64,000 nt of DNA from Armatimonadota bacterium (lineage in GTDB: Bacteria > Armatimonadota > UBA10988): the NCBI GenBank assembly GCA_016235455.1, contig JACRKZ010000032.1, positions 1 through 64,000 on the forward strand, in the 5' to 3' direction. A program made the translations under genes and the position numbers. The notes under the pieces are model-generated. The model worked only from the letters and a program-made list of their open reading frames with translations, made no database searches and was not told the DNA's origin. This document shows, one piece after another, positions 42,427 to 60,872 of this stretch. The stretch's first letter is position 1. Each line of letters begins with the position of its first letter.

Positions 42427-43575
42427 ATGGTCGACTGGAACGCCTACCGCGCCGACTGGCCGTATCTGGCCGAGGGCAGCCTGTGGCTGCAGCATGCCGG
42501 CATCACGCCGCTGAACCTGCGTGTCATGCGCTCGGCCACGCGCTACATGGAGGAGTTCGCCAAGTCGCCCGGCCCGACCTATCGCCGCCTGTGGCATGCC
42601 GCCACCGATGGCGCGAGAGACAAGGTGGCCGCGTTCCTGGGCACGACCAGCGACCGCCTGGCACTGGTCAAGAACACCAGCCAGGGCATCATCCTGGTGG
42701 CCGAGGGGCTCAGCCTGCCCGCTGGCGCCAATGTCGTCACGTTGACCGGCGAATTCCCGTCCAATCGGCTGCCCTGGCGCAACCTGGAGCGCCGCGGAGT
42801 CGAGGTCCGCACGGTGCCGGCTGATGCGCACGGGCACTGTGACACCGACGCGGTGGCCGCGGCCATGGACGCGGGCACCGCCGTGCTGGCGGTGAGTTGG
42901 GTGCAGTACATCGACGGCTACCGCCAGGATCTGGCCTCGTTGGCCGAGCTGTGCCAGCGCTGGGGCGCGTTCCTGGTGGTCGACGCAATCCAGGGCGCGG
43001 GCGCCTTGCCGCTGTTCCTCGACGGTCTCGACGCGGTCATCGCCGGCGGGCACAAGTGGCTGTGCGGCACCGAGGGCGCCGGGTTCCTGTACCTGTCGCC
43101 ACGCCTGCTGGACGCGCTGACGCCGTGCAACGTGAGCTGGGGCTCCGTGGGTGACTGGATCTTCCGCGCCGGCGAGGAGTTGCTGGCGGAGGAGTCCCTG
43201 CCGCCGCTCAAGCCCACGGCCGAGCGCTTCGAAGAGGGCACGCCGAACGTCTGGGGCCAGATCATGCTGGGCGAGGCCGTGGACATGCTGTCCGAGATCG
43301 GCCTGCCGACCATCTGGCAGCGCATTGTCGCCGTGCAGGACCATTTCATTGAGGCTGCGCGCGCCAAGGGCTATCGGATCGACTCCAGCCTGCTCCCCAG
43401 CCAGAGATCGGGTATCATGGCCTTGGCGCACGAGCGGCACACGCCCGCGGAAATCGTGCGCGCGCTGGCCACCGACAACATCACCGCCATCCAGCGTGGC
43501 CAGGCGGTGCGCATCGCGGCCCACTTCTACATCAATGAGAGCGACATGGATCGCGTGGTGGCGGCCCTGCCTTAG
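42427..43575 (+). CDS. Class V PLP-dependent aminotransferase/lyase (no desulfurase Cys)
   Basis: AGGAG RBS; KNTSQG, EFPSN, VDAIQ, GGHKWL, RFEEGT; lacks the RxGxHC catalytic Cys. Confidence 0.85.
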   Translation: MVDWNAYRADWPYLAEGSLWLQHAGITPLNLRVMRSATRYMEEFAKSPGPTYRRLWHAATDGARDKVAAFLGTTSDRLALVKNTSQGIILVAEGLSLPAGANVVTLTGEFPSNRLPWRNLERRGVEVRTVPADAHGHCDTDAVAAAMDAGTAVLAVSWVQYIDGYRQDLASLAELCQRWGAFLVVDAIQGAGALPLFLDGLDAVIAGGHKWLCGTEGAGFLYLSPRLLDALTPCNVSWGSVGDWIFRAGEELLAEESLPPLKPTAERFEEGTPNVWGQIMLGEAVDMLSEIGLPTIWQRIVAVQDHFIEAARAKGYRIDSSLLPSQRSGIMALAHERHTPAEIVRALATDNITAIQRGQAVRIAAHFYINESDMDRVVAALP

Positions 43576-51245: not shown

Positions 51246-52001
51246 TCAGTGCACGCGCACCGGCAGCGTCTTCTCGTACGGTCCGACCTTGACCAGCACC
51301 GAGCCCTGGCCGGACTGCACGCCGACGAACTCGCCATAGGTCGAGATGACGCCGCAGTTGCCGCTCACCAACATGCTCGGCACCACGGTGGGCGGCGCGC
51401 CGCCCAGATAGGCCACGCCGATCTGCCTGGCCATGCCCACGCTGACATCGATGGTCTCGGGCGTCACCTGAATGCCCGTGAAGCCGACCGTGGTGAAGCT
51501 CGTGGGCAGCGGCGCCAGGTACAGGTAGTAGTCCATGCCGCCGGTGATCGTCAGCGTGTAGTACGTCCGCGCCAGGCCGCTGCCCGTCGGCGGCGTGACC
51601 TCCACCCAGTTCGGGCCGGCCACTAACTGGTTCGCGGCAAACGTGCCGTCGCTGCCCGACATGCTGTGCACCGTGCCCGTAGGCTCGGTCTGCGTCACGG
51701 TGCCGCCATTGTCGGTGCCACCCGTGCCGCCACCGCCCCAGTCGGGTGGCGTGGGCGGATCGGTGGTACCGCCGCCGGAGATGACCCGCGACCTGTTGGT
51801 CTTGGGCAGGAAGCGCAGTGAGGCGCCAACCAGCGGGGAGTTGGCGTTGTCGCCGCGGACGATGACGCCCGTGGCCCGACCGAGCCCGCCCAGCCCGCCG
51901 CCCGGCGGAATGCTGCCGCCCGTGAGGCCGGCACAACCCGCCAGCAGGCTGATCGCGACAACCAGCCCAATGGCTGCCAGCACCCGCGGGACTCGGCGCA
52001 C
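51246..52001 (-). CDS. Lipoprotein with carboxypeptidase-regulatory-like and Ig-like domains
   Basis: Lipobox LLAGC, PLVGASL...SDGTF pattern, IQVTP Ig-like C-terminus; starts 3 nt after the regulator stop. Confidence 0.65.
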   Translation of the reverse strand: MRRVPRVLAAIGLVVAISLLAGCAGLTGGSIPPGGGLGGLGRATGVIVRGDNANSPLVGASLRFLPKTNRSRVISGGGTTDPPTPPDWGGGGTGGTDNGGTVTQTEPTGTVHSMSGSDGTFAANQLVAGPNWVEVTPPTGSGLARTYYTLTITGGMDYYLYLAPLPTSFTTVGFTGIQVTPETIDVSVGMARQIGVAYLGGAPPTVVPSMLVSGNCGVISTYGEFVGVQSGQGSVLVKVGPYEKTLPVRVH

Positions 52002-52004
52002 GGT

Positions 52005-53744
52005 CTACTCCAGTGCAGCAAACTCCGCTGTCAGCGGTGGCCAGGCCAGCGCCGTCAGCACTTCGGTCAGCCGGTCTGCACAGCCGGCCGTCGACAGCAG
52101 CGTAAGGCAGCCGCGAACCAGCGTCAAGCGTTCCACGTCGTCGAGCAGCGCTTCTTCGACCTCACTCGCCAACAGCGCCTCGCGCGCGCCCACCCAGCCC
52201 AGCAGACAGGCCTCGGCCGCGTCGCGGTCGCCCAGCGCCGCGGCGCGCGCGCCCAGCACCGAGAGCAACAGCTCGTTCGCCCTGGTTTCACGCGCCAGCC
52301 GCTCGGCTTCTTCAAACAGGGTGGCCGCATCGCGCGCGTCGGCCGCGTCGCGGGCTTGAGCCAGATAGGCCCAGCCCAGTTGCGCGCGCGCGCCGATGCG
52401 CTCGGCTACGGCCGCCACGCGCCGCACCTCGATGCCGGCGGCGGCCCGCTGGCCCAGCGCCCGTTGCGCTTCGGCCACGGCCAGCCGCGCGGTCGATTCC
52501 ATCTTGGCCAGTCCGTGCGCCGTCGCCGCCGCCACGGCCTGCTGCGCGTGGTAGAGGGCCTCGTTGGCATCGCCGGCCCGGCGCGCGGCTTCGCTCTGGG
52601 CCAACTGCGCCAGCAGCTCGGCCCGCACCGAGCCCAGCTCGACCGCCTCGCTCAGCGCCGCGCGGGCCTCGCCGCGAGCCTCGGCGCAACGGCCCAGCAC
52701 CGCCAGCAACTCGGCGCGACAGGCCTGTGCCACGGCCATGCGCTCACGTTCGCCCGTCAGCCGCGCCACCCGCAGCGCGTCGTCCAGCGCCTCCAGCGCC
52801 GCCGGCAGCAGCAGTTGCTGCCGGCGAGCGAAGCCCAGGTTGATGCGCGCCTCGATCAGCTGGCTGACGGCCGCCAGCTCCTCGGCCAACGGCGCGCAAC
52901 GGCGGGCCGACGCCTCGGCCCGCTCGAAATCGTCATGGAGCAGGTACACATTGGTGGTGGCGCCGGCCACGAACACCTCGGCCCAGGCGCGCGACGGCCC
53001 TTCGGGTTGGGCGGCGATGAGCTGCTCGGCCAGGTCCAACTCGGCCAGCGCGGCCTCGCCTCGGCCCAGCGCCTCATAGACATCGGCCCGGCCCAGGCGG
53101 CCCTTCCACTCGCTGTCGAACCGCCCCCCGGCGATGACCGCCTCGAACTCGGCCAGCGCGCGGTCGCGCTCACCCAGCCCGGCCAGCGCCGCGCCCAACG
53201 TCTGATGGGCCGCCCGCTCGCGGTCCGCGTTGCCCGACTCGGCGTAGGCCTGCACACAGCGCTGCATCGCCGCGCGCGTGCCTTCCAGATCGCCGAGTTG
53301 GTAGCAGGCATGGCCTAGCCGGAAGTCGGCGTCGGCAATCAACTGGGGATCCTCGCTACGCGCCGCGAGTTCGGCCATGCGCTGACAAGTGGTGCGAGCC
53401 GCGCCGAAGTCGGGCGGGCTGGACTGGGCCACGGCCAAGGTCAGCATGGCCTCGAGCCGCTCGGCGGCGGCCGCGGGCTCCGGCTTGACCGGCATCGGCG
53501 CGGGCCGGGCCTCGGCGTCGGGCTCGTCGGCGTAGAACCACGCCAAGGGCCGGCCACACACGCGTCCGATGGCCTGCAGACGATCCGCCTGGGCCAGCAC
53601 CTGCCCACTGACATACTGGTAGATGAGGGCACGCGAACAGCCGACGGCCGTGGCCAACTCCGCCAGCGACATGCTGGCGGCATCGGCCGCGGCCTGAATG
53701 CGCCCGCCCAATTCGCGCCGCCCATCGCGGCTGCTCAGATCCAC
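52005..53744 (-). CDS. XRE-family HTH regulator with TPR repeats
   Basis: MSLAELATAVGCSRALIYQYVSG HTH_3 followed by about 10 TPR-like helical repeats; GGAG RBS, GTG start. Confidence 0.85.
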   Translation of the reverse strand: MDLSSRDGRRELGGRIQAAADAASMSLAELATAVGCSRALIYQYVSGQVLAQADRLQAIGRVCGRPLAWFYADEPDAEARPAPMPVKPEPAAAAERLEAMLTLAVAQSSPPDFGAARTTCQRMAELAARSEDPQLIADADFRLGHACYQLGDLEGTRAAMQRCVQAYAESGNADRERAAHQTLGAALAGLGERDRALAEFEAVIAGGRFDSEWKGRLGRADVYEALGRGEAALAELDLAEQLIAAQPEGPSRAWAEVFVAGATTNVYLLHDDFERAEASARRCAPLAEELAAVSQLIEARINLGFARRQQLLLPAALEALDDALRVARLTGERERMAVAQACRAELLAVLGRCAEARGEARAALSEAVELGSVRAELLAQLAQSEAARRAGDANEALYHAQQAVAAATAHGLAKMESTARLAVAEAQRALGQRAAAGIEVRRVAAVAERIGARAQLGWAYLAQARDAADARDAATLFEEAERLARETRANELLLSVLGARAAALGDRDAAEACLLGWVGAREALLASEVEEALLDDVERLTLVRGCLTLLSTAGCADRLTEVLTALAWPPLTAEFAALE

Positions 53745-53812
53745 CAGTGTCTCCGCTGTCCAGCCTGACTATACAGTGCCCCGACTCAACAGCCCTGTGA
53801 CTACCCCTGATC

Positions 53813-54020
53813 AAAAAAGGACATCCGACCCCACAAACCAAACCTTGGCGCGAACCCCGACGCTCCCCTGTCAGAAACTCGCGGCTTGGCTTGTAGGGCC
53901 GGATCGGTACGTCCCCGTAGAGCCGGGACGCCGTAACCAGGCCGCCAGGCCGGCGGTAGAGGCACGCCCTACCTCTTCACCACCGACCGCGCACCGAAGC
54001 TCGTTTCGCTCCAGCCCACT
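53813..54020 (-). ncRNA. Candidate structured RNA (~208 nt), family not recognised
   Basis: Own promoter, four consecutive hairpins with strand-specific G.U pairs, ends in TTTTTT. Confidence 0.65.
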
Positions 54021-54026
54021 GAGTAG

Positions 54027-54055
54027 AGTGTATAGCCACGCTAGACAGATGTCAA
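54027..54055 (-). promoter_or_regulatory. Near-consensus sigma70 promoter
   Basis: TTGACA-17 nt-TACACT on the minus strand, with an AT-rich upstream tract (AACATA x2). Confidence 0.8.
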
Positions 54056-54158
54056 ACACTCCGTTGGTAACATAAACATAAATTCCAAGGAAACTGGACA
54101 GTCTGGCCGCTGGTCGGCGACAGCGGGCGGCGCTACAATCCGCGCTGGAGCAGAGCGC

Positions 54159-56018
54159 ATGCTAGCTGATCGATTTGGCGAGAGCGACCTGGCGGGCCAT
54201 CTGGTGCCCTTGGCGGCCTGGCGGCCCTATCCGCGGGCGAGCGACCGCGACGGCTGGGGCGACCTGGAGCCGGCGCGGGCGGCAGCGCTGGTGGCCGCGG
54301 GTGAGGCGCGGCTGAGCCAGCCCTGGCCGGTGCTGTTGGCCTCGGTGTTCGCCGAGTTCCGCCGCACGGGCAATCGCAGCCACTGGGAGCAGCCCCAGTT
54401 CGCGCGGCGCAGCATGCTGTCCGACCTGGTGCTGGCCGAGTGTGTCGAGGGCCGGGGCCGATTCCTCGACGCGATCACCGACGGCGTGTGGCTGATCTGC
54501 GAGGAGTCGTTCTGGGGCGTCTCGGCCCACAACTGGGGCAAGCGCTGGCCGGACTCGCTCCTGCCCGACACCGCCGAGCGCATCATCGACCTGTTCGCCG
54601 GCGAGACCGGCGGGCTGCTGGCCTGGACGCTGTACCTGCTGGGCGACCAGCTCACTGCCGTCCATCCGGTGATCACCGACCGCATTCGCCGCGAGCTGGA
54701 CGAGCGCATCATCACACCGTACCTGGAGCGCGACGACTTCGGCTGGATGGGCCTGCAGGGCGGCTGGGTGAACAACTGGAACCCGTGGTGCGCCTCCAAC
54801 TGCCTGACCGTGGCCCTGCTCGCCGAGCAGGACGAGCCACGGCGCGGCGCGGCGGCCGCCAAGACGCTGCGCATCATCGAGCGGTTCGTCGCCATGTACC
54901 ATGCCGACGGTGGCTGCGACGAGGGCACGTCCTACTGGGGCCGAGCCGGCGCGTCGTTCTTCGACTGCCTCGACCTGCTCGACAGCGCCACGGCCGGCTG
55001 GCTGAACGTGTGGTCAGACCCGCTGGTGGGCAACATGGGCCGCTACCTGTACCGCTGCCACATCGACCGCGACTGGTACGTCAACTTCGCCGATGGCGGC
55101 GCCCGCGTGGGTGTGGAGGCGCCGCTGCTGTGCCGCTATGGGCGGAAGATAGGCGACTCGGCCCTGGTCGATCTGGGTGTCTATGCCGATCACCTGCGGC
55201 GCGCGGGCCACGAGCCGCCGTTGCGCATCACCTCCATGGGCCGCCGCCTGCCCGAGCTGTTCGACTGCCCGGAGCTGGCCGGCGAACCACGACCGGCGCC
55301 ATACATCGCCGCCGCCTGGCTGGACGGCATCGAGATGCTTACCGCCCGCTCTGAGCCGGGTTCGGCCCAGGGCCTGTTCCTGGCAGCCAAGGGCGGCCAC
55401 AACGCCGAGAGCCACAACCACAACGACGTCGGCCAGTTCATCGTCTTCCAGCACGGCCAGCCGGCGATCATCGACCTGGGCGTGGAGACCTACACGGCGC
55501 ATACCTTCTCGCCCCGGCGCTACGAGATCTGGACCATGCAGTCGGCTTGGCACAACCTGCCGACCCTGGGCGGCGTGCAGCAGAGCGCCGGCCGGCAGTT
55601 CGCCGCGCGCGAGGTCAGCGCCCAGGTCGATGACGACCGGGCCGAGCTGCGCCTGGACCTGGCCGGCGCTTACCCCACCGAGGCCGGCCTGCGCGCCTGG
55701 CATCGCACAACGCGGCTGGAGCGGGGCGACCAGCCCCGCGTCGTGGTGCACGACACCTTCGAACTGGCGGAGCCGCGCGAGGTGCAGCTCAGCGTGATCC
55801 TCGCCCGCGAGCCGCGGCTCACACCCACCGGCTGCGACCTGGCCGGCGAGGCGCCACTGTCCATCGCCTGGCCAACCGGCGTACTCAACGCCAGCATCGA
55901 GGCGGTCGAGGTCACCGACGACCGACTGCGCCCAGTGTGGGGCGAGCGAGTCTGGCGCCTGCTGCTGACCACGACCGGCGCGGTCGAGCGCGGCGACTGG
56001 ACGATGACGGTCGGTTAA
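54159..56018 (+). CDS. Heparinase II/III-family protein
   Basis: IDLFAGET, NNWNPWC, DGGCDEG.SYW, NFAD, KGGHNAESHNHNDVG, SAWHN. Confidence 0.85.
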   Translation: MLADRFGESDLAGHLVPLAAWRPYPRASDRDGWGDLEPARAAALVAAGEARLSQPWPVLLASVFAEFRRTGNRSHWEQPQFARRSMLSDLVLAECVEGRGRFLDAITDGVWLICEESFWGVSAHNWGKRWPDSLLPDTAERIIDLFAGETGGLLAWTLYLLGDQLTAVHPVITDRIRRELDERIITPYLERDDFGWMGLQGGWVNNWNPWCASNCLTVALLAEQDEPRRGAAAAKTLRIIERFVAMYHADGGCDEGTSYWGRAGASFFDCLDLLDSATAGWLNVWSDPLVGNMGRYLYRCHIDRDWYVNFADGGARVGVEAPLLCRYGRKIGDSALVDLGVYADHLRRAGHEPPLRITSMGRRLPELFDCPELAGEPRPAPYIAAAWLDGIEMLTARSEPGSAQGLFLAAKGGHNAESHNHNDVGQFIVFQHGQPAIIDLGVETYTAHTFSPRRYEIWTMQSAWHNLPTLGGVQQSAGRQFAAREVSAQVDDDRAELRLDLAGAYPTEAGLRAWHRTTRLERGDQPRVVVHDTFELAEPREVQLSVILAREPRLTPTGCDLAGEAPLSIAWPTGVLNASIEAVEVTDDRLRPVWGERVWRLLLTTTGAVERGDWTMTVG

Positions 56019-57855: not shown

Positions 57856-58305
57856 ATGGCACGAAACCGACTGCTGATGGTGGTAGGGGTGTGCGCCGGG
57901 ATGGTGGCCGGGCTAGGCGGCTACACGTTCTGGTATGCCAAGGGGTTCTCCTACATGACGAACGACCCCATAGCCTGCGTCAACTGCCACATCATGCGCG
58001 ACCAGTTCGATGCCTGGACGCGGTCGAGCCACCATGCGGTGGCGGTCTGCAACGACTGCCACACCCCGCACGACTTCATCGGCAAGTGGACCACCAAATC
58101 CCTCAACGGGTACCACCACTCCCTGGCCTTCACCGTGGGCGGGTTCCACGAGCCCATCCGCATCAAGCCGCGCAACAAGGCCGTGACCGAACACAACTGC
58201 CGTCGGTGCCACGCACCGATCGTGGACCAGATAGACCGCGCCCATCCAGTCAGCGGCGGCATGTCGTGTCTGAGCTGCCACCGCGATGTCGGCCATCTGC
58301 ACTGA
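57856..58305 (+). CDS. nrfH: Cytochrome c nitrite reductase small subunit
   Basis: N-terminal TM; four hemes CVNCHIM, CNDCH, CRRCH, CLSCH. Confidence 0.93.
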   Translation: MARNRLLMVVGVCAGMVAGLGGYTFWYAKGFSYMTNDPIACVNCHIMRDQFDAWTRSSHHAVAVCNDCHTPHDFIGKWTTKSLNGYHHSLAFTVGGFHEPIRIKPRNKAVTEHNCRRCHAPIVDQIDRAHPVSGGMSCLSCHRDVGHLH

Positions 58306-58314
58306 GGTGAGATC

Positions 58315-59793
58315 ATGAGCGACGAGACGAACGCGACCCCTGAACCCGAAGACGCCCCCGACACGGCGGCCGCGGACCGCCCGAGGCGAGGCGCGGGTGT
58401 AGCCATCCTCCTGGCCGTGGTGTTGGTGACCGCCGGGCTGACGGCCGGCATCGCCGCGCTGCTGATCAACATCCAGGGCAAGAAGGTCGAGGAGAAGAAC
58501 CCGTTCTTCCGGGTCGTCGAGCTGACCGATGACACCGAGGACCCGGCGGTATGGGGCCAGAACTTCCCGCTCCAGTATGACGGCTACAGGCGCACATCGG
58601 AGATGCGCAAGACACGGTTTGGGGGCAGCGAGTCGGTGCGACGGGTGCCCACCAAGGACGACCCACGGGAGTACGTGGCGGGCTCCAAGATCGATGCTGA
58701 CCCGAGGCTCAAGACCATGTGGGCGGGCTACGCCTTCGCCGTGGACTACCGCGAGCGCCGCGGCCATGCCTACATGCTCGAGGATCAGCGGTACACCCAG
58801 CGCCAGGTGGTCAAGCAGCAGCCGGGCACCTGCCTGCACTGCCACGGCTCGATGTACGTGCCCTACAAGACGGCCGGCAACGGCGACATCATCAAGGGCT
58901 TCGAGAAGCTCAACCCGATGAAGTACCAGGACGCGGCCAAGAGCGTGAAGCACCCCATCTCGTGCATCGACTGTCATGAGCCGGCGACCATGCAGCTCCG
59001 GGTGACCCGACCGGGCTTCATCGAAGGCATCCGCGCACTCAAGGCCAAGGAGGGCCACGCCAACTACGACGTCAACCGCGACGCCACGCGCCAGGAGATG
59101 CGCTCGTATGTGTGCGGCCAGTGCCACGTGGAGTACTACTTCAAGGGCGAGGAGAAGCGCCTGGTCTACCCGTGGCGGAACGGTCTGAAAGCGGAGGAGA
59201 TGCTGGCCTACTACGACGCCGAAGGGTTCAGGGACTGGACCCACAAGGAGACCGGCGCGCCCGTACTCAAGGCCCAGCACCCCGAGTTCGAGACCTGGAG
59301 CCAGGGCACGCATGCCAAGGCGGGAGTGGCTTGCGCCGACTGCCACATGCCCTATGCCCGGGTCGGTGCCCACAAGATCAGCGACCACCACGTGCAGAGC
59401 CCGTTGCTCAACATCAACCATGCCTGCCAGACCTGCCACAAGGCCGATGAGGCCGACCTGAAGGCCAGGGTCGACCTGATCCAGGACCGCACGAAGCAGT
59501 TGGAGGACATCGCGCTCGACGCGCTGAGCGACCTGATCGCCGACATCAAGGCGGCTCGCGCCGCGGGCGCCACCGACGCCCAACTCGGCGCCAAGGACGG
59601 GCCCTGGGCCTACCAGCGCCGCGGCCAGTACTTCATCGACCTGGTCTGCAGCGAGAACTCCATGGGCTTCCACGCACCGCAGGAGTCCGCGCGGATGCTG
59701 GCGCAGGCCATTGACTGGCTGCGCCGAGGCCAGAAGGCTGTCCTGCAACTGGACCGCACGGCGGCCACGGTGGCGGCGGCGCCGAAGTCGTAG
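58315..59793 (+). CDS. nrfA: Ammonia-forming cytochrome c nitrite reductase (CXXCH variant)
   Basis: WAGYAFAVDY..RGH, five CXXCH, CGQCHVEYYF, LKAQHPEFE, ENSMGFHAP. Confidence 0.93.
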   Translation: MSDETNATPEPEDAPDTAAADRPRRGAGVAILLAVVLVTAGLTAGIAALLINIQGKKVEEKNPFFRVVELTDDTEDPAVWGQNFPLQYDGYRRTSEMRKTRFGGSESVRRVPTKDDPREYVAGSKIDADPRLKTMWAGYAFAVDYRERRGHAYMLEDQRYTQRQVVKQQPGTCLHCHGSMYVPYKTAGNGDIIKGFEKLNPMKYQDAAKSVKHPISCIDCHEPATMQLRVTRPGFIEGIRALKAKEGHANYDVNRDATRQEMRSYVCGQCHVEYYFKGEEKRLVYPWRNGLKAEEMLAYYDAEGFRDWTHKETGAPVLKAQHPEFETWSQGTHAKAGVACADCHMPYARVGAHKISDHHVQSPLLNINHACQTCHKADEADLKARVDLIQDRTKQLEDIALDALSDLIADIKAARAAGATDAQLGAKDGPWAYQRRGQYFIDLVCSENSMGFHAPQESARMLAQAIDWLRRGQKAVLQLDRTAATVAAAPKS

Positions 59794-59811
59794 GCTGACA
59801 GGATCAGGGCG

Positions 59812-59846
59812 GCGGCGCCGGCGGACCGATGGGTCGCCGGCGCCGC
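59812..59846 (+). terminator. Hairpin downstream of nrfA
   Basis: GCGGCGCCGGCG/CGCCGGCGCCGC 12-bp stem. Confidence 0.5.
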
Positions 59847-60008
59847 GGCCGGTTTGTGCGCGGCGGTCACCGAACCCGGCGTCATCGGCGCTGAAGGTCC
59901 CGCGGCGGGACGGGGGAATCCCGTCGCAGCGGCCCCGCGACGGGCATCGTCCGCGCCACCTGACCGCAGTGTGGCTGGTCGTGGCCAGCCACGCGGAGTA
60001 GCCCATCG

Positions 60009-60872
60009 ATGACGATCTGCCACCCCCACCAGCCCGGGCTCCGGGTTTTGCTGCTTGGCCGGTACGCCGGCTTGTGGCCCGCCAGCGCCGAACCCATGCA
60101 GTTCCCGGCACACTGGGGCCAGCCGCCGGCCATGCAGACCGTCGATCTGCGTCCGCTGCCCGGCGACTACGGCGAAGGCAGCAGCACGCTGGCCCAGTGG
60201 ACCCAGGCCAACCTGGACAAGGACGCTTCCACACCTGACAAAGGCCCGCGCCAACCCGACGGCAGCGGCGCAGTGGCCATCACCGGCGAGCTTCGCCAGT
60301 GGCACAAGGTCACGCTCACCCTCGACGGCCCGTTTGCGCACGAGCGCGACACTGCGCCCAACCCTTTCAACGACTACGCCATGGCCGTGGTCTTCACGCA
60401 TGAGTCCGGCGAGGCGGGCACCAAGTGGCGGGCGCACCTGTCGCCCGACAAGCCCGGCAGATGGACCTACCTCGTGTCATTCGCCAGAGGTCGGCAGGTC
60501 GCCGTTGGCGACGCCCGGGGCGAGGCCGTGGAGCCTTTCGATGGCCGGAGCGGCAGCTTCGCGATCGGGCCGACCGACAAGACCGGCCGCGACTTACGGG
60601 CTCAGGCGCGACTGCGTTATGTGAGCCGACACCATCTCCAATCTGCCGGCTCGCGGGAGTACTTCCTCAAGGCCGGCGCGGACGCGCCCGAGACGCTGCT
60701 CGCGTATGCCGACTTCGACGGCACCCGGCCTGGGCGCAAACGCGAGGCCCGCACCGGCGAAGCAGCTCCAACCCAGTCGCTACACCGCTACGCACCCCAC
60801 GTCGCGGACTGGAAGGTGGGCGATCCGCCCGGCGAGCCCGGAGCGGACCGGCTGGTCGTCGTCCGCAAGTGA
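60009..60872 (+). pseudogene. Internally deleted DUF5060-type protein
   Basis: GELRQWHKVTL..NPF..KWRAHLSPDKPG, FLKAGADAPETLLAY; jumps from DWKVGDP to a C-terminus-like PGEPGADRLVVVRK. Confidence 0.6.

Follow-up and report, generated by a model that had tools for sequence, protein, structure and literature searches.

We found a structured RNA that belongs to a single family-level lineage of the Armatimonadota and is located immediately upstream of the gene for an XRE-HTH and TPR regulator. The element lies in a 64,000-nt stretch of the genome of an Armatimonadota bacterium (contig JACRKZ010000032.1, positions 1 to 64,000), which we refer to as the window, and it occupies 208 nt on the minus strand (positions 53813 to 54020). 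Its structure is real, conserved, covarying and strand-specific. The motif is new to Rfam, and by type it would be a structured 5′ leader or attenuator. We consider the chances slightly better than even that the mRNA for the regulator and a putative lipoprotein carries it as a structured 5′ leader specific to this lineage.

Read from position 54020 to 53813 on the minus strand, the element folds at −114.4 kcal/mol (z = −5.39), and none of 200 shuffled sequences was as stable, whereas its opposite (plus) strand folds at −71 kcal/mol with a z-score of only −0.29. The minimum-energy fold contains 76 pairs. As 15 of these are G.U, the asymmetry in G.U pairing between the strands is real. A sequence-only reading of this region had taken the G.U pairs as a sign of selection at the RNA level, and both the difference in z-score between the strands and the covariation in relatives described below bear this out.

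The fold of the window's genome contains all four hairpins that had been proposed, as well as the run of six Ts behind them, all on the minus strand. H0 (53996–54012; GGAGC/GCUUC) is specific to this genome and is not conserved. H1 (53948–53988) carries a GGGCG loop, which together with its 3′ flank makes up the sequence GGGCGUGC (53969–53962). The sequence of H2 (53910–53930; CGUCCC/GGGACG) is retained in most relatives. The long hairpin H3 (53819–53914) consists of a GGAC/GUCC base, a lower stem of 22 uninterrupted base pairs (53904–53883 with 53844–53823), a GCGAG..UUCGC module, a CUGAC/GUCGG top stem and the apical loop AGGGGAGC (53869–53862). A U6 tract (53813–53818) directly follows the GUCC of H3, a terminator-like shape that is seen in this genome only, and the predicted 3′ end of the RNA lies at this T-run. 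The 5′ and 3′ ends of the fold are joined by only four pairs. Two DNA runs from another study have T7 instead of T6 at 53812/53813 and are otherwise identical to the window over positions 53784–54253. Between the element and the regulator gene lies a spacer (53745–53812, minus strand) that contains, as read from the sequences, a conserved CUGGACAG-CGGAG ribosome-binding region and no promoter-like site.

The promoter TTGACA-17-TACACT, which the earlier reading had also pointed out, is present upstream of the element at 54055–54027 on the minus strand, with its −35 box (TTGACA) at 54055–54050 and its −10 box (TACACT) at 54032–54027. It is the sole promoter-like site across positions 53000–55000 (shuffle mean 0.1) in a scan that recognises sigma-70-type promoters. 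The predicted transcription start is A54020, 7 nt past the −10 box. Within the promoter spacer lies a GTCTAG box (54046–54041).

To compare upstream regions, we read the 600 nt 5′ of 30 regulator orthologs, six from the window's family and 24 from other families. A near-identical promoter, TTGACR-N3-GTCTAG-N5-CTAYACANT, precedes a homologous structured region in all six family genomes, and none of the 24 orthologs outside the family showed such a region behind such a promoter in this interval. The promoter pattern TTGACNNNNGTCTAGNNNNNCTAYACANT occurs in exactly one copy in each of the six family genomes and is absent from the only sister-family genome. A scan of genome contigs that represent 185,579 species by one genome each returned five records only, and their positions are those of the promoters of five family relatives. 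Metagenome contigs yielded four loci, among which L039 is the sole member. The remaining three (L040–L042) were rejected as chance matches, as their downstream sequences are A+T-rich and unrelated to the element. There were no matches to the pattern in viral contigs.

Searches with the element itself gave a consistent picture. Its sequence has one copy in its own genome, and a blastn search of 40 related genomes returned one partial match, in the same genus, upstream of an XRE-TPR ortholog and behind the same promoter. No blastn match was found in phage and plasmid collections. We also built a covariance model on the 3′ half of the element (H2–H3), which scores 100 bits at the element in the window. 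Under strict search filters, it matched six of 151 Armatimonadota genomes, with one copy each and all in the window's family, and none of the 145 other genomes of the phylum. A further match of this model in the window (43347–43459; 21 bits, E = 0.017) is weak and was taken as chance. The element is thus single-copy in all six family genomes and present on one metagenome contig, and it is always located between the same unique promoter and the XRE-TPR ortholog. The resulting set has seven members, namely G000 (the window's own genome, 93% complete), G001, L005, L006, L007 and L008 from the one family, and L039. All are known from sequences of uncultured organisms, and the comparisons below are made on these seven only.

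In each of the seven, the sense fold exceeds the antisense fold in stability by 9–44 kcal/mol, with sense z-scores of −2.6 to −5.6 and 10–15 G.U pairs. The antisense strand is comparably structured in G001 only. The variable arms of H3 have diverged to a mean identity of 43% between members, and their pairing has been kept. When we exchanged H3 arms between members in a test that requires no alignment, cognate arms paired at a mean of −18.8 kcal/mol versus −9.1 kcal/mol for swapped arms, and the cognate arm was the best partner in six of the seven rows, with a tie in the seventh. In an alignment fitted with the covariance model, pairing extends to 89.8% of the cells, and both sides have changed in 15 of 31 pairs. 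None of 500 shuffles reached these values, and slid controls gave 35–49% pairing. As an alignment of this kind is biased in favour of its own structure and the seven sequences are related, we take these figures as support and not as probabilities. The same exchange for the outer stem of H1 gave −14.9 kcal/mol for cognate versus −10.3 kcal/mol for swapped arms, with the cognate arm best in three of seven rows, a weak sign of covariation. H2 shows no covariation (−9.3 versus −8.7 kcal/mol) and is not evident in G001 and L039. The check that had been proposed for the RNA, a look at the regions upstream of regulator orthologs, therefore finds it conserved in six of six family genomes and finds H3 covarying.

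The bases that are invariant in all seven members are GGGCGUGC at the tip of H1, GGGAGCG at the tip of H3, the CCGG base of H3 and a YUGYC-UU tail. The 5′ domain comes in two forms. L005–L008 have a larger domain, with a P1-like closing helix and an AACGG(G/C)C motif, in an element of 228–254 nt overall, and G000, G001 and L039 have a reduced form of 200–210 nt overall. As the 5′ domain differs between these forms, the plan of four hairpins holds within the window's genus but does not extend across the family, where the H1 tip, H3 and the tail alone are common. As plain MAFFT aligned the 5′ half poorly, we claim no family-wide consensus for the 5′ domain.

The same comparison bears on whether the region is selected as RNA at all. 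It could instead encode a protein or leader peptide, or be a palindrome, either by chance or at the DNA level. Two ORFs noted in the sequence-only reading, one of 54 codons opening with GTG (53965–53801) and one of 16 codons, do exist in the window's genome. However, the elements of G000 and G001 differ by indels of 7, 5, 1 and 1 nt, two of the seven members (L005 and L039) have no ORF of at least 12 codons in the leader, and the ORFs of the other members are not homologous and differ in frame and position. The strand-asymmetric G.U pairing and the covariation speak against a palindrome. We therefore find a coding or DNA-level explanation hardly credible.

The RNA does not belong to a catalogued family. 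A search of the whole window against Rfam 15 at gathering thresholds gave no matches, and inside the element there were none at E ≤ 10, in agreement with the earlier statement that it matches no recognised riboswitch, 6S, SRP or tmRNA. At E ≤ 1, the loci of five relatives returned nothing relevant. Two matches to microRNA-precursor models in these loci scored about 27–29 bits against gathering thresholds of 80–95 and were treated as chance. A full-text literature search, judged from its listings, returned nothing relevant to the motif. The Armatimonadota are almost entirely uncultured, and to our knowledge no regulatory RNA has been described for this phylum.

Two known kinds of structured RNA deserve closer comparison. 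The first is a divergent housekeeping RNA such as 6S RNA (RF00013), which is likewise highly structured and about 200 nt long. The RF00013 model finds nothing in the 93% complete genome of the window, which would leave room for a divergent version of the right size. The topology differs, however, as the element is a series of hairpins and not a rod closed by its 5′ and 3′ ends around a central bubble, and it is confined to one family (0/145 other Armatimonadota genomes) and tied to one regulator gene. On these grounds 6S RNA was rejected as an identification, and a housekeeping RNA of any such kind is very improbable. A retron msr-msd was rejected as well, as none of the eight ORFs scanned around the element matches a reverse-transcriptase family and the four pairs between the ends are the only ones that join them.

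The second is a riboswitch for a small molecule or ion, with the 5′ multi-stem domain as the aptamer and H3 with the U-tract as the expression platform. The location in a 5′ UTR together with a terminator-like hairpin would suit a riboswitch, as would the P1-like helix that closes the 5′ domain of L005–L008 and the AACGG(G/C)C motif at its junction. Nevertheless, we consider a riboswitch improbable. The architecture of the 5′ domain differs between the large (L005–L008) and small (G000, G001, L039) forms, with overall lengths of 204–254 nt, and the invariant bases are confined to the two hairpin loops and the base of H3. A terminator stem of 30–35 bp would hardly permit refolding in response to a ligand, none of the riboswitches in Rfam matches, and the downstream genes hint at no ligand.

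We then considered whether the element is a leader or a gene of its own. The upstream neighbour varies among genomes, while the regulator is constantly downstream. In the 600 nt 5′ of the regulator start, the promoter of the RNA is the only one found in G000, L005, L006, L008 and L039, and in L007 none is found by the criteria of the scan. G001 has a second promoter-like site, TCGACC-18-TATAGT, which overlaps the tail of the element; the other six members have none before the regulator gene. In L039, the distance from the tail of the RNA to the GTG start is only about 40 nt. The sequences that follow H3 are T6, TTATAG, TTTGGG, TTTTGG, TTGCG, TTTTTGG and TTTTCC, so that the U-tract has at least four Us in four members, three in one and two in two. 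As the T-run is not conserved, six of the seven members lack a second promoter and the spacer of L039 is so short, the element reads as the 5′ leader of the regulator. The initial description of it as a self-contained gene is not supported.

In G000, GUCC closes H3 and U6 follows, and this version, taken on its own, looks like a textbook unit of promoter, RNA and terminator. A hairpin of about 40 bp before U6 resembles a strong terminator, and this arrangement suits a discrete RNA as well as it suits a leader. A simple terminator scan does not call H3/U6, which we ascribe to the limits that the scan places on stem and loop length. A stand-alone sRNA gene would run from the conserved promoter to H3 and the U-tract and act in trans through its two G-rich loops, with the regulator transcribed from a promoter that the scan does not recognise. 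In its favour are the layout in G000, in which the promoter, the 208-nt structure and the hairpin with U6 follow each other, the U-tracts of at least four Us in four of seven members, the exposure of the invariant loops in the folds, the second promoter-like site at the tail in G001 and the RNA-library contig described below, which lies wholly within the element. Against it, the U-tract is absent or broken in G001, L007 and L005, six of seven members have no second promoter-like site, the L039 spacer is about 40 nt, the CTAG-box promoter is the regulator's own in other families, and the element never occurs away from the regulator gene, with its place between promoter and gene the same in all seven. 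We regard a stand-alone sRNA as unlikely, although it is the alternative that we take most seriously.

Of the options that the sequence-only reading had left side by side, a novel sRNA or attenuator or a translationally locked mRNA, the attenuator fits best. The Shine–Dalgarno sequence and GTG that were proposed to be hidden in H1 are not conserved. By inspection, we found no conserved alternative pairing that would form an antiterminator or sequester a Shine–Dalgarno sequence. The sole candidate, GGUCGGU with ACCGAUC, occurs in G000 and G001 and was not found in the other members.

A metatranscriptomic library contains a contig of 158 nt (depth 3.8) that sits on positions 53844–53987, wholly inside the element, and is near-identical to it. 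Four letters differ, of which three are listed. Of these three, two replace C by U across from a G in the RNA, at RNA positions 66 (H1) and 96 (H2), and the third lies in a linker. Both C>U changes keep a G.U pair on the RNA strand, where the other strand would have A.C. As evidence of expression this is weak, as it is a single contig, carry-over of DNA is possible and differences below a depth of 5 may be errors. In the same run, the only piece with at least 95% identity is the one inside the element; contigs are of low depth, and flanking genes that are not covered are uninformative. Another run contains a relative, at 90–95%, of the promoter and the N-terminus of the regulator.

Additional evidence that the promoter belongs to the regulator comes from other families, where the regulator has its own promoter about 100–130 nt 5′ of its ATG. 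A GTCTAG or ACTAGA box lies within 250 nt of the regulator start in eight of the 24 orthologs from other families (L009, L012, L014–L017, L019 and L022), against a background of 0.06 per 250 nt. As the box accompanies the regulator in these families, the CTAG-box promoter of the element looks like the regulator's own. The GTCTAG box is probably an operator, possibly an autoregulatory one. L039 carries an additional inverted repeat, AGTCTAG-N-CTAGACT, upstream of its promoter (about 1310–1330), and G001 carries a second GTCTAG.

The leaders of these other families have elements of their own. In L012 (3318–3333, minus strand) and L015 (3319–3334, minus strand), a terminator-like hairpin followed by U7 lies between a promoter (TTGACK-18-TATGAT) and the regulator ATG. 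As both are from the same genus, which belongs to another family, they count as a single observation. This hairpin means that attenuation in the leader of the regulator may recur. A different arrangement was seen at L010, L011, L013, L014, L018, L024, L025, L027 and L029–L032, where two or three runs of 5–7 Cs lie 28–61 nt 5′ of the regulator ATG. In several cases these C-runs are within a hairpin loop (e.g., GCAAGCCA...UGGCU(C)GC), and a second hairpin then ends at the ATG. At least two C-runs were found in 12 of the 24 leaders from other families versus none of the six in the window's family. The C-run leaders had no matches in Rfam at E ≤ 0.1. The C-run motif may thus add another uncatalogued leader element to this gene.

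The regulator itself (52005–53744, minus strand) is a protein of 579 aa with a GTG start that matches Pfam HTH_3 and TPR. Its structure model has a mean pLDDT of 93 and contains the HTH domain at residues 1–71, a disordered linker at 81–88 and paired helices up to residue 578; we read the helical region from about residue 89 to 578 as approximately 12 TPR-like repeats. Of 401 sampled Armatimonadota genomes, 102 have an ortholog, among them all 32 in one family, and the N-terminus of the protein is strongly conserved. The protein has no NCBIfam match and no sequence match in the PDB. Genes of the window's family open with GTG or TTG behind GGAG, and those of the 24 orthologs outside it all open with ATG. 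Directly downstream in the window is the gene for a putative lipoprotein of 251 aa (51246–52001, minus strand), with a signal peptide that by eye ends in LAGC and with a Gly/Thr-rich linker. It belongs to no Pfam or NCBIfam family. This gene directly follows the regulator in G000, G001, G002, G004 and G005, and weak matches adjoin regulator orthologs in two other genomes. Of the system that had been suggested for the RNA, the HTH-TPR protein and the lipoprotein, the genetic linkage is supported, as the RNA is always upstream of the regulator and the lipoprotein follows in relatives. The genes neighbouring the element encode the HTH-TPR protein, the lipoprotein and a heparinase II/III-like protein. 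For an ORF of 773 aa elsewhere in the window (57913–60234, minus strand), a Pfam search at E ≤ 0.01 gave no family.

With its XRE HTH at the N-terminus, a TPR domain behind it and an RNA genetically linked to its gene, the regulator recalls RRNPP-type receptors such as those of AimR-AimP-AimX and PrgX/Qa, which have companion RNAs or peptides. The comparison with AimR/AimX had been raised from the sequence, but its basis is only the generic HTH and TPR architecture. Unlike RRNPP receptors, the regulator appears to have about 12 repeats (residues ~89–578), and a fold search found its best matches in generic TPR proteins (LGN, subunits of the APC), with Rap at rank 34. The leader has no conserved peptide ORF, the RNA is located in the 5′ part of the transcript of the regulator itself and not at a downstream target, and the regulator is chromosomal and widespread in a non-Firmicute phylum. 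An RRNPP- or arbitrium-like module was therefore rejected, as it lacks a conserved small ORF and its fold matches generic TPR proteins, even though HTH and TPR are present.

Returning to the leader that we favour, its action can be sketched as follows. Transcription would start at the strong sigma-70-type promoter with the GTCTAG box. The first ~210–260 nt would then fold into a variable 5′ domain that is tipped by the invariant GGGCGUGC loop, followed by H3, a stem of 30–35 bp tipped by the invariant A(C)GGG(G)AGC loop. H3 and the variable U-tract may act as a leaky intrinsic terminator, as a double-stranded target of RNase III, or as both, and in this way H3 would set the read-through to the GUG or UUG start of the regulator and to the lipoprotein gene. 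A stable RNA of about 210 nt could be freed as a by-product.

Both modes have counterparts in well-studied bacteria. The rnc and pnp genes of Escherichia coli have autoregulatory 5′ leaders that are processed by RNase III. Like these leaders, the element places a long near-perfect hairpin of at least 20 bp in the 5′ UTR of a regulatory gene, and RNase III is encoded in the genome of the window (domain match of 105 bits). The combination that marks such leaders, at least about 20 bp of double-stranded RNA in a 5′ UTR and a gene for RNase III, is thus found in G000 with its 22-bp stem, and cleavage of this stem is predicted. The element has no sequence relation to rnc or pnp, it has an additional 5′ domain of several hairpins as well as two invariant G-rich loops, and the gene that it would regulate encodes a DNA-binding HTH-TPR protein and not a ribonuclease. 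The SreA and SreB riboswitch leaders of Listeria also yield stable small RNAs. Similar to these, the element is a promoter-proximal structured RNA with a hairpin and U-tract 5′ of a gene that could act both in cis and as a released RNA, but unlike SreA and SreB it has no Rfam match, no conserved aptamer core and no known ligand.

The two G-rich loops would be the likeliest contacts for a factor acting in trans, either a protein or the 30S subunit. The latter is a candidate because GGGGAG resembles a Shine–Dalgarno sequence. Binding of CsrA to the GGA in the H3 loop was rejected, as no CsrA gene was found in the 93% complete genome of the window. By our reading of the sequences, the two loops share a GRGCGY core. 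A bolder possibility, which we regard as quite improbable, is that a discrete stable RNA presents its two GRGCGY loops on a covarying double-stranded rod to a partner, either the TPR superhelix of the regulator or a dedicated RNA-binding factor, and that the activity or synthesis of the regulator is fed back through its own leader. Under this reading, the C-run motif of the other families could represent a second solution to the same control point. We know of no RNA-responsive XRE-TPR circuit of this kind.

Our comparison uncovered a well-supported new structured RNA motif, and the regulator that it accompanies is present in 102 of the 401 genomes sampled from the phylum. Its reach is limited for now to seven sequences from uncultured organisms, and the regulatory role is predicted. 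The leaders of this regulator differ by family: the one described here has a long structured RNA, others have C-run hairpins, and one genus has a small terminator. As different families have different conserved leader elements, the leader is marked as a post-transcriptional control point of a possible core regulator of the phylum. This makes it a compact model of how leader RNAs are replaced during evolution.
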